Positions 1 to 2,161 of a DNA stretch of 2,161 bases are shown here, piece by piece. The position numbers were made by a program, and so were the translations under genes. The stretch's first letter is position 1; the number at the start of each line of letters is the position of its first letter. The notes beneath the pieces were generated by a model, which did not search any database, had not been told where the DNA came from, and saw only the letters and a program-made list of their open reading frames with translations. Source of the stretch: Naegleria gruberi (lineage: Eukaryota); assembly GCA_000004985.1 (NCBI GenBank), contig GG739285.1; one strand, written 5' to 3'.

Positions 1-325
1 AAAAGTCATTAAGATGTGCGCCCCGTTGTGAAATGATTTATTGTGTAGAGTTTCGTTATTTATTTGATTACTTTTGGGTGTGACTGGAATATTGTTTGGT
101 AAATGTTTGATTGGTATTATTACTATTGGAAACAGACGGAGTGGTTGGTCAACTTGGTTGTGTTCTTTCATTACTTTTTGACTTTTGATTCATATGAACA
201 AGATCTTGTTAGACCACTACTGGTGCTTGACTGGTTATTGTTCACTAACTTTTTCTTTTGCTTACTGATGGAAATTCTGAAGAATCAGGAAAATGATCAG
301 AACTTGCACAAGACTATTTGTTTAA

Positions 326-376: not shown

Positions 377-844
377 TTAAAGAAGAATAAAAACATTAGA
401 GTTCTTATTCATTCTATAGTTATTGTAAATATCAACAAGGAGTTCCAATAATTGACTGTGAATTTCCTCAAAAAGTGGTCTTTCAGATACTTCAGTAGAG
501 AGACATTTGGAACCAATTGAGTATAATCGTTCTGCTTGGGACTTGTTCAAGCATTTAAAGGTTGTCATCAATTCATCAATTGTAATGAACCTCTTCAAAT
601 GGGCCTTTAGGTCAATTTGGGAAGTTGGGGATGGAGGAGTAACTCCAAAGAATTTTAAACATCTTTCTGTAAAGGCCTTTCCACTTCCACTTCCATTAGT
701 GTTAGAGCTTTGTGTTTCCAATGGTTTAGCTGCTTGAAGGATCTCATTCATCGTCACACCAAAGCTGTATATATCAAATTTTCTGTAATCAAACTCAAAC
801 CCAGGTTTGAGTGTGCCTTCTTTTCTCTGAACTAATTCTGGCGC
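377..844 (-). CDS. Terminal coding exon of a split Ser/Thr protein-kinase gene (kinase C-lobe; ends with TAA stop at 379..377)
   Basis: Read in the frame of minus ORF 377..865, starting at codon GCG (844..842). Translation: APELVQRKEGTLKPGFEFDYRKFDIYSFGVTMNEIL... This contains the APE motif (subdomain VIII), D-I-Y-S-F-G (subdomain IX) and ...ERPLFEEI...L (subdomain XI). The exon start is fixed by the acceptor AG at 846..845 (minus). The stop TAA is followed by an AT-rich 3' flank. Confidence 0.85.
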   Translation of the reverse strand, partial: APELVQRKEGTLKPGFEFDYRKFDIYSFGVTMNEILQAAKPLETQSSNTNGSGSGKAFTERCLKFFGVTPPSPTSQIDLKAHLKRFITIDELMTTFKCLNKSQAERLYSIGSKCLSTEVSERPLFEEIHSQLLELLVDIYNNYRMNKNSNVFILL

Positions 845-888
845 CTTTAATATTGATGAAACCAAACACTTATCTTATAGATACTTAC
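845..888 (-). other. Spliceosomal intron (44 nt, phase 0), GTAAGTATC...ATATTAAAG
   Basis: The minus strand reads ...CATTATATG|GTAAGTATCTATAAGATAAGTGTTTGGTTTCATCAATATTAAAG|GCGCCAGAATTA... Removing it joins the two ORFs in frame and regenerates the G-T-x-x-Y-M-A-P-E activation-segment motif. A TAA at 849..847 lies inside the intron, which explains the ORF break. Confidence 0.9.
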
Positions 889-1791
889 CATATAATGGGA
901 TGTTCCTGAAGCAGTTGCTGTTGTTGATTGATAATTATCAACTTGTTCTGAAACGTTAAAATCAGCAATTTTTACATCACCAACAAGCTGCAATCCATTC
1001 ACATCAACCATGTCTATTAAGATATTGGAAGGTTTGATATCGTAATGGATGATTTTCTCCTTGTGCATATAATTCAAAGTATTGGCACACTTTACAAATA
1101 CCATCAGCAGTTGATATAATTTACCAAAACTATTATTTCCAAATTCAGTAATTCGACAATTTTCCAATGAGAAATCCATTAATTTCAAATACAAATGAAA
1201 AGATTCAGATGTTTGCTCCTTGTGTACAAGATCAACTGTTCCATGATGCGAGTTCAGTTTTTGAAGGATTTCATATTCGTGTTCTCCAATTTTAACATCA
1301 CTGAATACCTTCTTTACCACATTATTATCACCAATCTTTCCTTTGTAAACTTTGCTGCAGAGAATGGCCTCTTGTTCAAATTTCTTGCTACCAATATCTA
1401 GATAGGTTCTTGGAGTGAGTTTTACAAAAGGAAATAGGCTGTATGCAATTGATTCAGAAAGATTGTGGGCAAGGTATTGTTCGTAAAATAAATATCCATC
1501 TTGTTTCTTGTGGGAGAGAATATACGAAACTGGACTGATCATGTCATAGGGCAAAGTGTATGGTCTCTTGACATACATCAAAAGATTTTCAAAAGCAAAC
1601 TTATAATTAAAGAATTCTGTCACTAAAACAGATGGATCAAGAAGTACCTTCTCCCCTTTCTTGGTGGACATCAATCCGTATTCAGAAATAGAGAATTTGT
1701 TCGACAGGTGCAAATCATACATGATAGCTTTTGCAAGGAAAAGTTTCACAAAATTATAGCTCGACTTCTCCCATGCTTTCTCTAACAGAGG
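889..1791 (-). CDS. Large internal coding exon: linker region plus kinase N-lobe through the activation loop
   Basis: A 301-codon open frame, open from 1797 and modelled from 1791. It encodes VYKGK-type beta-strands, VVKK (VAIK-like Lys), EHEYEILQKL (helix-C Glu), HKEKIIHYDIKPSNILI (catalytic loop), VKIADFN (DFG-like) and SGTSHYM. It ends in phase 0 directly before a minus-strand GTAAGTAT donor at 888. The 3' boundary is high confidence. The 5' boundary (acceptor AATAAG|, AG at 1793..1792) is model-based. The first in-frame ATG is at 1722..1720. Confidence 0.8.
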
Positions 1792-1884
1792 CTTATTTCA
1801 AATCATATGAATAATGTTTCGTTTGTTTCTAATACTTACAACCTTTTGAAGAATTTATAACTATACCAATAAGCGCAAACTTAC
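1792..1884 (-). other. Intron (93 nt, phase 0) linking the second ankyrin exon to the kinase exon. It contains an internal GTAAGT at 1839..1834 and a possible 3-nt micro-exon GTT (1842..1840)
   Basis: The donor is AACATG|GTAAGTTTG at 1884. The only acceptor that enters the kinase reading frame in phase 0 is AATAAG| (AG 1793..1792). Intermediate acceptors (TATAG| at 1861, CAAAAG| at 1843) lead either to an in-frame TAA or to a 3-nt exon followed at once by a second GTAAGT donor. Both the 93-nt intron and the 42+3+48 arrangement preserve the frame. Confidence 0.4.
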
Positions 1885-1971
1885 CATGTTGGAAATCATA
1901 ATATTGGTATGACTGAGAAGGCTATGAACAACTGATTTGTGATTATTGTAAAAGGCAACACTCAATGGATT
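1885..1971 (-). CDS. 87-nt phase-0 exon encoding one ankyrin-like repeat unit
   Basis: The minus-strand segment is open in only one of three frames: NPLSVAFYNNHKSVVHSLLSHTNIMISNM. It fits the ankyrin core pattern (T/N)PL..A....H..VV..LL. It is bounded upstream by the acceptor ...CTAAC...AAATTAG| (AG 1973..1972). It is bounded downstream by AACATG|GTAAGT (donor at 1884). It is exactly 29 codons long. Confidence 0.55.
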
Positions 1972-2020
1972 CTAATTTCAGAGTTGTTAGAAATATTACT
2001 CAGAGATCAGTAACACTTAC
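1972..2020 (-). other. Spliceosomal intron (49 nt, phase 0) with a CTAAC branch-point motif
   Basis: Minus strand: GTAAGTGTTACTGATCTCTGAGTAATATTTCTAACAACTCTGAAATTAG. It has a perfect GTAAGT donor. The TTCTAACAA branch-point-like element lies 14 nt upstream of the AG. The flanking exons are each open in exactly one frame and join in phase 0. Confidence 0.6.
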
Positions 2021-2107
2021 ACCAATGTTCACGTCAATAGTTTCTGAACTCAATAATAATTTTACAATAGTATCACTTCCAATTTTACTAGCAGCAACCA
2101 GTGGTGT
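2021..2107 (-). CDS. 87-nt phase-0 exon encoding one ankyrin repeat unit
   Basis: Minus-strand translation: TPLVAASKIGSDTIVKLLLSSETIDVNIG. This is a close match to the ankyrin consensus TPLH.AA..GH..IVKLLL...D.N. It ends with a complete codon immediately before GTAAGTGTT (donor at 2020). An in-frame TAG at 2110..2108 forces the exon start to 2107 via the TTAG| acceptor (AG 2109..2108). Confidence 0.55.
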
Positions 2108-2152
2108 CTAATATTCTGTAAAGAAAACTGTTTTTATGGATTAGCAACTTAC
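2108..2152 (-). other. Candidate 5'-most intron in the window (45 nt), GTAAGTTGCTAATCC...TTTTCTTTACAGAATATTAG
   Basis: GTAAGT is at 2152..2147 (minus). The pyrimidine-rich tract and TTAG| acceptor lie immediately before the ankyrin exon. The upstream exon cannot be confirmed. In phase 0 it would read TGA CAG TCA, with the TGA at 2161..2159 on the window edge. An alternative weak donor GTCAGT at 2156 avoids this. Confidence 0.25.
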
Positions 2153-2161
2153 TGACTGTCA

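Follow-up and report, generated by a model that had tools for sequence, protein, structure and literature searches.

An ankyrin-repeat, non-RD kinase paralogue of Naegleria gruberi that lacks a canonical glycine-rich loop

Can a protein kinase do without the glycine-rich loop that holds the phosphates of its ATP? The question is raised by a small unplaced scaffold of the Naegleria gruberi NEG-M assembly (contig GG739285.1 of GCA_000004985.1), the whole 2,161 bp of which form the stretch of DNA analysed here, hereafter the window. A preliminary description of this stretch had pointed out an unusual kinase core, with a HYD catalytic loop, a DFN motif and a degenerate, enlarged glycine loop, and had named no strand. 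All the kinase motifs are read from the minus strand, which carries the 3' portion of a gene interrupted by introns; it encodes ankyrin repeats on two exons, then a helical linker and a protein kinase domain. The gene runs off the scaffold end on its 5' side, and after splicing the window accounts for 514 amino acids of its product. This protein has no canonical glycine-rich loop, and it is likely that the loop was deleted rather than enlarged. It keeps its catalytic side chains, and we moderately favour the view that it is a non-RD Ser/Thr kinase of low activity or low ATP affinity, or one that binds ATP in an atypical way. The gene is an atypical paralogue of a canonical-fold kinase and represents no new kind of system.

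Register of the missing glycine loop

The close relatives of the window protein are all N. gruberi proteins, 28-38% identical to it (Table 1, with the labels used below). Their N-lobes were compared with that of the window protein in a MAFFT alignment of the family (A1), in an alignment of the family with 24 canonical bacterial kinases (A2) and in an alignment restricted to the linker and N-lobe (A3).

Table 1. Paralogues of the window protein and the state of their motifs
Accession	Labels	Glycine loop	Catalytic motif	DFG position
XP_002674560.1 (38% identity)	P0028/P0177	GKGGYG	HND	DFD
XP_002671040.1	P0030/P0178	GNGANG	HYD	DFD
XP_002680160.1	P0001	VISGNRKNK, full length, one Gly	HYD	DFD
XP_002668129.1	P0038/P0179	INKNGSAH, full length, one Gly	HYD	DFG
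XP_002674929.1	P0029	N-lobe barely alignable	HHD	DFS
XP_002667934.1	P0168	tail hairpin LGFGVYKA, short	HCD	DFD

The GxGxxG expected between beta1 and beta2 is missing, and no GxGxx[G/A/S] occurs in the whole 514-residue window-encoded protein, in agreement with the earlier claim that the canonical loop is absent. The geometry proposed at the same time, in which the Gly of 'IGS' was the first Gly of the loop and about 7 extra residues preceded VYKG, did not survive the comparison. All three alignments concur in placing FEQEAIL on the canonical beta1 and KVYKGK on beta2 (compare RVYKVR), with a gap of 4-6 columns at GxGxxG. 'IGS' itself aligns with LSN, LVN and IEG of the paralogues, about 11 residues upstream of the paralogues' own loops, and in P0177 the segment aligned with it coexists with a canonical GKGGYG. 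The best pairwise result points the same way: Needleman-Wunsch alignment gives the deletion register with the closest paralogue, XP_002674560.1 (top score, 45), and likewise with P0001 (score 22); the register is ambiguous with P0179. A count of spacing, an argument that depends little on alignment, was also made. The distance from the (I/M)AYS motif of the linker to the beta3 Lys is 43 residues in the window protein, 48 in P0177 and P0001, 52 in P0178 and 44 in the P0168 tail. Because this distance is 5-9 residues below that of P0177, P0001 and P0178, the region must be regarded as shorter, not longer.

An AlphaFold2 model was obtained from a 30-sequence alignment, A2 being supplied; its residues carry their own numbering (FEQEAILC, residues 196-203, corresponds to model residues 138-145). 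The model has a mean predicted local distance difference test score (pLDDT) of 80.2 and a predicted template modelling score of 0.81, and consists of a largely helical linker and a complete kinase fold, with pLDDT values of 79-91 across the N-lobe strands and the helix C region. It shows IGS as coil, followed by three consecutive strands from F196 onwards. A structure-guided check of this kind had been suggested by the preliminary description; it bears out the absence of the loop, although the region is shortened and not enlarged. According to these results, it is likely that the glycine loop was deleted by about 4-6 residues, beta1 (FEQEAILC) and beta2 (VYKGKI) being joined by a two-residue turn.

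Some observations weigh against this register. The AlphaFold register is not independent of the MAFFT alignment A2 that was given to it, and a single-sequence AlphaFold run of the kinase domain was uninformative on the point (pLDDT 37.8). The alignment tool hmmalign, used with a profile of 23 canonical bacterial kinases, left the whole N-lobe of the window protein unaligned; when the N-lobe alone was compared with PDB sequences, only weak matches were obtained (E ~5e-5), those to GRK kinases being mis-registered, and they gave no placement of the loop. Moreover, Needleman-Wunsch alignment with P0178 favours an insertion, through a shared 'RTYL' that stands directly before GNGANG and leads to a 9-residue insertion. 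This is the geometry of the preliminary description, in which 'IGSKKF' would be the remnant of GxGxFG and about 7-9 inserted residues (EQEAILCS) would form an enlarged hairpin over the ATP site. I-G-x-x-x-F does fit three positions of L-G-x-G-x-F-G, and enlarged Gly-rich loops exist, for example in BSK8 (PMC4718504). However, the P0178 alignment reaches a score of 20, whereas the closest paralogue gives the deletion register with 45, and the position of IGS upstream of beta1 in A1, A2 and A3, the shortened AYS-to-Lys distance and the strands of the model all speak against an insertion, which we consider distinctly unlikely.

Under either register there is no functional GxGxxG. Nor does a canonical motif lie elsewhere in the protein, mis-registered by the preliminary description; it is the IGS register itself that is probably wrong. 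The sole G.G of the protein belongs to GSGSGK (residues 410-415). We considered this motif as a displaced glycine loop and rejected it, as it lies within a low-confidence C-lobe insertion that the paralogues lack.

Catalytic motifs and the Naegleria family

The remainder of the catalytic core is conserved. The HxDxKxxN signature, the DFG Asp and the APE are present, H307, D309, K311, N314, D335, F336, P361 and E362 being invariant in A1 and A2, and the beta3 Lys (K219) and the helix-C Glu (E230) are also in place. The non-RD catalytic loop, with no Arg before the catalytic Asp, and DFN as the Mg-binding motif can both be read directly from the codons, as the preliminary description had them. 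Its list of intact residues (beta3 Lys, helix-C Glu, catalytic Asp and Asn, DFN Asp and APE) was correct, but the APE lies outside the segment 889-1500 to which it had been assigned, beyond a short intron. The domain is of the eukaryotic type, as proposed: it matches Pfam PF00069 (Pkinase) with E = 8.2e-29 over residues 205-489, above the curated threshold of this superfamily profile, and the match begins at profile position 14, just past the glycine loop. PK_Tyr_Ser-Thr matches with E = 2.7e-20; the N-terminal ankyrin matches are weak.

Is this a pseudokinase by sequence? The classic definition requires that at least one of three residues be lost, the Lys of VAIK, the Asp of HRD or the Asp of DFG, and K219, D309 and D335 are all retained, which confirms that the pattern is not the classic one. 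A broader definition covers proteins lacking one or several of the conserved nucleotide-binding or catalytic motifs, the Gly-rich loop included (PMC4718504). The window protein falls under it, its loop being absent, although this is a sequence criterion and no proof of inactivity.

A sequencing error at the HYD or DFN codons, the way in which these motifs might have been explained away, is unlikely. At HYD it is so because the Tyr codon TAC is at least 2 substitutions away from any Arg codon and because three other paralogues (P0001, P0178 and P0038) also have HYD. The Asn337 codon, AAC, is 2 substitutions from Gly and a single transition from the family-typical Asp (GAC). Since the paralogues carry them, HYD and the non-Gly residue after DF are evidently inherited family traits that are not peculiar to the window copy. 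The HRD Arg is lost in all seven members (the window protein and the six paralogues) and the DFG Gly in six of the seven, the third position of the motif being D, N, S or G. A survey of paralogues for the HYD/DFN signature, another suggestion of the preliminary description, thus finds that HYD recurs and that this copy is not exceptional in having HYD or a non-Gly DFx. In the set of the 152 best representatives, HYD is confined to the Naegleria family; other non-RD types make up about a quarter of the catalytic loops in this set.

Full-length similarity, linker included, supports membership in this family (E = 5e-52 to P0001 over 89% of the query; E = 6.6e-56 to P0028), and so do two spacings. 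The catalytic Asn and the DFx Asp are 21 residues apart in 7/7 members; in 282 other catalytic loops taken from the search matches the mode is 13, and 21 occurs 4 times. The activation segment has exactly 28 residues in six of the seven members, and 25 in P0168. The members also share the ankyrin-linker-kinase architecture where they are complete, YM(A/P)PE, D.(Y/F)SFG(V/I)T and a C-terminal helix. Residues H307, D309, K311, P312, N314, D335, F336, P361/E362, D383 and R481 are invariant across paralogues about 35% identical, and the C-lobe invariants visible in A1 include DIYSFG. In the model, the 21-residue stretch from Asn to DFx (window 955-1024) appears as an extended beta7-beta8 hairpin (..DMVDVNGLQLVGDVKIADF).

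What is specific to the window copy is the loss of the glycine loop; in addition, its VAIK Ala is Val. The length of its loop region is shared by one fragment, the P0168 tail. Compared with its paralogues, it has neither a loop nor a Gly in that place, shows DFN in place of DFD and has about 35-40 extra residues inserted in its C-lobe. Val or Leu stands at the VAIK Ala position where the loop is degenerate or absent, that is, in the window protein, in P0179 (YVIK) and in P0001 (VLEK), and the Ala is kept together with glycine-containing loops in P0177, P0178 and the P0168 tail (VAEK). This pattern of substitution may reflect co-degeneration of the ATP site. The P0168 sequence comes from a 1019-bp scaffold and shows, at residues ~155-215, a family-type C-lobe followed directly by the end of a linker and the start of a new N-lobe, 'EVLGFGVYKAWLNGIEVAEK'. 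This partial protein represents either a tandem arrangement or a gene model that has been fused, and its hairpin is about 4 residues short, with G-F-G kept. The comparison suggests that the window protein and the P0168 tail belong to a short-hairpin subgroup.

We then asked how far the family extends. A word-indexed homologue search for orthologues outside N. gruberi, with A1 and A3, gave almost nothing beyond P0001, P0027 and P0030 and no orthologue of another species, a result that may reflect the sensitivity of the search. A look-up of contigs encoding P0001 gave no entry. Viral contigs scanned with A1 yielded 33 loci, all of them generic kinases with no close relative among them; the identity was at most 46% over short C-lobe segments, and at most 35% when a single 46-residue match is set aside. 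In the literature we found no description of such a Naegleria kinome family or of kinases 'lacking the glycine-rich loop'. Altogether, the sequences point to a small ankyrin-linker-kinase family of at least seven members, undescribed, uniformly non-RD and apparently restricted to N. gruberi.

Gene structure, linker and predicted fold

The gene model was built from GTAAGT donors and AG acceptors on the minus strand, with the frame kept consistent (Table 2). Four introns of 45, 49, 93 and 44 nt were placed, each starting with GTAAGT and ending with AG. A prokaryote-style list of open reading frames contains instead two frames in differing phases, one of 300 aa (1749-847) and one of 162 aa (865-377). 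Without splicing, the frame of the large exon reaches a stop 13 codons past SHYM, and YMAPEL is contiguous in every paralogue of A1.

Table 2. Features of the window, in the order of the gene (all on the minus strand)
Feature	Position	Strand	Basis or remark
Putative end of upstream exon (...DSQ), 9 nt	2153..2161	-	frame continuous with the next exon; GTAAGT donor at 2152
Intron, 45 nt	2108..2152	-	acceptor 2108/2107 is the only one without in-frame stops
Ankyrin-repeat exon (TPLVAASKIGSDTIVKLLLSSETIDVNIG)	2021..2107	-	Pfam Ank E = 3.7e-4 (at cutoff); Ank_2 E = 2.3e-5
Intron, 49 nt	1972..2020	-	+1 frame shift across the intron, matching its length
Exon, second degenerate ankyrin repeat (NPLSVAFYNNHKSVVHSLLSHTNIMISNM)	1885..1971	-	Pfam Ank_2 over residues 4-78
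Intron, 93 nt	1792..1884	-	length a multiple of 3, frame kept
Large exon, 903 nt: linker, N-lobe, catalytic loop, DFN, activation segment to SHYM	889..1791	-	single open frame
Linker domain, family-specific, mostly helical, residues 59-190	1396..1791	-	conserved in P0001 and P0177 (YILSHK, AYS motifs)
IGS, formerly presumed loop remnant	1387..1395	-	coil upstream of beta1, model residues 133-135
Beta1 FEQEAILC, residues 196-203	1357..1380	-	DSSP strand, model residues 138-145, pLDDT ~79-86; aligns with canonical YEILALLG
Two-residue turn S204-K205 in place of GxGxxG	1351..1356	-	model residues 146-147; 4-6 column gap against canonical kinases
Beta2 VYKGKI, residues 206-211	1333..1350	-	DSSP strand, model residues 148-153
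Beta3 strand NNVVKKVF	1303..1326	-	DSSP strand, model residues 156-163
VVKK	1320-1309	-	sequence
Val217 in place of the VAIK Ala	1315-1317	-	alignment
VAIK-type Lys, K219	1311-1309	-	column at least 90% conserved in A2
EHEYEIL	1284-1264	-	sequence
Helix-C Glu, E230	1278-1276	-	column at least 90% conserved in A2; helix at model residues 166-178
Catalytic loop HYDIKPSN (CAT TAC GAT ATC AAA CCT TCC AAT); H307, D309, K311, N314	1047-1024	-	H, D, K, P, N invariant in A1 and A2
HYD (CAT TAC GAT)	1047-1039	-	non-RD class, no Arg before the catalytic Asp
DFN (GAT TTT AAC); Asp335, Phe336, Asn337	963-955	-	D, F invariant; third position D/N/S/G across paralogues
Intron, 44 nt, inside the activation segment between SHYM and APE	845..888	-	splice restores the family motif YMAPEL / YM(A/P)PE
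Last exon: APE, kinase C-lobe, C-terminal helix, stop codon (379-377)	377..844	-	open reading frame; Pfam Pkinase to residue 489
APE (P361, E362)	844-836	-	beyond the 44-nt intron; invariant in A1 and A2
C-lobe insertion, ~35-40 residues, residues 402-441 (ETQSSNTNGSGSGK...IDLKAH; ETQSSNTNGSGSGKAFTERCLKFFGVTPPSPTSQ...)	599..718	-	without counterpart in any paralogue

An exhaustive HMMER search of 1.84 billion representatives identified a GenBank entry, XP_002668137.1 (EFC35393.1, 'predicted protein, partial [Naegleria gruberi]'), whose 278 aa are 100% identical to residues 82-359. Of the large exon, this entry includes no more than the stretch from Met82 to SHYM. A longer gene model with at least five exons is predicted from the scaffold; it extends the entry by the two ankyrin exons on the 5' side and by the whole C-lobe with the stop codon on the 3' side. 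Some 200 nt beyond the kinase stop, a 57-codon open frame (MKEHNQVDQPLRLFPIVIIPIKHL...) runs on the minus strand from an ATG at 171-169 to the window end (window 1-171); it may mark the beginning of another gene next to the kinase gene, or be no more than 3' untranslated region.

The first ankyrin exon aligns with the ankyrin region of P0001, P0178 and P0029. The linker, about 130 residues between the ankyrin repeats and the kinase, gave no match in a Pfam search, and in the AlphaFold model it forms helices at model residues 53-75, 82-93 and 103-118, plus a small beta-hairpin. The C-lobe insertion is the only long low-confidence stretch of the model (pLDDT <50, model residues 345-380). Hidden introns were considered as its origin and rejected, there being no GTAAGT-type donor and the frame staying open.

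One may ask whether the gene is functional at all. The locus could be a non-functional leftover on an orphan scaffold of 2 kb, either a duplicate in decay or an artefact of the assembly, and its motifs would then be meaningless. The scaffold is indeed tiny and unplaced, the GenBank model is partial, the C-lobe insertion is specific to this copy and of low confidence, and no second sequence at least 90% identical was found, though other members have counterparts in ENA or Logan. However, the reading frame is uninterrupted over 514 codons and four exons, with consensus GTAAGT donors, although the DNA is AT-rich (~25-39% GC; 33% for the sequence with the 514-codon frame). All the invariant residues needed for the fold and for catalysis are present, the model is of good confidence except in the insertion, and HYD and the spacings typical of the family are as in the paralogues. 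We therefore hold this explanation to be highly improbable.

Expected activity and significance

The reading that we moderately favour is that of a working, if weak, non-RD kinase. Ser/Thr specificity is presumed from the Lys in HYDIKPSN. In such an enzyme, Mg-ATP would still be bound through Lys219, Asn314 and Asp335; the backbone clamp on the beta- and gamma-phosphates would be absent, leading to low activity or low ATP affinity, and the Lys side chains of the short hairpin (K205, K208 and K210) may partly replace it. Activation would not depend on an Arg-phosphate contact in the activation loop, and the ankyrin repeats would recruit the kinase to its partners. We favour activity, or ATP binding, because the catalytic side chains K219, E230, D309, K311, N314 and D335 and the APE are kept and are invariant among paralogues of about 35% identity. 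In addition, a 514-codon frame with consensus splice sites has been kept open in AT-rich DNA.

Several points count against this reading. The Gly-rich loop clamps the ATP phosphates through its backbone, its mutation lowers ATP affinity and activity, and an intact loop together with the VAIK Lys has so far been the best sequence predictor of catalytic activity (PMC4718504). The loss of the loop and the change of the catalytic-spine Ala to Val217 therefore argue against robust activity. Moreover, the gene lies on a tiny unplaced scaffold with no near-identical copy in other assemblies, its 90% cluster having one member. At the same time, sequence alone is unreliable in this respect: ILK, despite its degraded loop, still uses side chains to bind ATP (PMC4718504).

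The preliminary description had offered either an atypical active kinase or a low-activity scaffold, which was the right pair of options. The second of them is a pseudokinase that would have the kinase fold, transfer no phosphate, possibly bind no ATP, and use its ankyrin repeats and the surfaces of the fold to serve as an adaptor or as an allosteric partner, as ILK does. The complete lack of a glycine-rich loop is in its favour, as is the bulkier Val217, since the Ala-to-Val/Leu change is also found in the degenerate-loop members P0179 and P0001 and not in the canonical-loop members. In ILK, where ankyrin repeats are combined with a pseudokinase, the Gly loop is likewise degraded and the Gly of DFG is replaced (PMC4718504), and non-RD kinases show low activity in vitro (PMC8463890). 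On the other hand, the beta3 Lys, catalytic Asp, DFG Asp, helix-C Glu, Lys311 and Asn314 are kept and invariant at about 35% identity, which would be unexpected were catalysis or Mg-ATP binding dispensable, and ILK itself still binds ATP. A pure scaffold is the strongest competing reading but, in our opinion, the less probable one.

ILK resembles the window protein in that ankyrin repeats at the N-terminus precede a kinase fold whose Gly-rich loop is degraded and whose DFG+2 residue is not Gly (PMC4718504). However, the ILK loop has its full length, with Asn for Gly50 and Gly52, and ILK is treated as a pseudokinase that binds ATP with micromolar affinity (PMC4718504), whereas the window protein keeps the catalytic Asp, Asn, Lys and Glu. 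Neither the top 60 PDB sequence matches nor the top fold matches include ILK. The likeness is one of architecture and not of membership in the ILK family. Other pseudokinases lack the GxGxxG signature, namely VRK3, TRIB1/2, BIR2 and MLKL; MLKL and TRIB also have a noncanonical HRD and/or DFG, and the nucleotide pocket of VRK3 and BIR2 is occluded (PMC4718504). In contrast to these, the window protein has intact catalytic residues and a loop that is shortened, not substituted.

Among kinases of known structure, the best Foldseek matches in the PDB are IRAK4 and TNIK (E ~3e-12, ~21% identity; IRAK4, E = 3e-12), and phmmer against PDB sequences ranks STK32A, TNIK, SLK, STK10 and IRAK4 best. The IRAK family (TKL) and the STE20-type TNIK, SLK and PAK1 are among the best fold and sequence matches, which point to no single kinase group. 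The C-terminal 'C...RP.F..I' motif of the window protein is, we assume, typical of TKL kinases. The plant non-RD kinases EFR, XA21 and FLS2 likewise lack the HRD Arg; kinases of this type are for the most part receptor kinases that read HCD or HGD and whose Gly loop and DFG are canonical. STK32A is an AGC kinase and MNK1/2 are CAMK kinases, both being RD kinases with normal Gly loops. In the PDB alignment, STK32A (YANK1) reads 'ITDFNIA', with DFN as in the window protein; it differs by HRD at the catalytic loop. The identity to these kinases is about 30%, over the C-lobe only. STK32A was reported as an active dual-specificity kinase (bioRxiv 10.1101/2020.03.04.976555), and MNK1 and MNK2 carry DFD and are biased to a DFD-out state (PMC3326643). 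Because STK32A (DFN) and MNK1/2 (DFD) are active kinases, DFN or DFD is in itself no argument for unusual activity, contrary to the weight first placed on it; these kinases are precedents for catalysis with such motifs. The other earlier generalisation, that non-RD kinases do not depend on activation-loop phosphorylation, is correct insofar as they are 'thought' to be independent of it, with low activity in vitro, but there are exceptions, among them a non-RD kinase in which this phosphorylation matters (PMC8463890).

A stronger proposal is that the window protein and the XP_002667934.1 tail are true phosphotransferases without a glycine-rich loop, the hairpin being reduced to its two-residue turn and the phosphates being held by the lysine side chains of K205, K208, K210 and K218 or by the linker, and not by backbone amides. 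We speculate on this while judging it unlikely; loop-free phosphotransfer would mean that the canonical kinase fold allows a minimal geometry of nucleotide binding that has not been described before. If the window kinase is active, a canonical kinase fold would be able to transfer phosphate without its glycine-rich clamp, which would bear on the prediction of pseudokinases from sequence. Apart from that, the locus reflects ordinary diversification of a protist kinome, degenerate kinases being common in expanded protist kinomes. The analysis corrects a partial GenBank gene model, and the HYD and DFN 'oddities' turn out to be family inheritance. Within one family there exists a natural series, from a canonical loop (P0177 and P0178) through a full-length degenerate loop (P0001 and P0179) and a short one with Gly (the P0168 tail) to a short one without Gly (the window protein). 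This series could be used to test experimentally what the glycine loop contributes.

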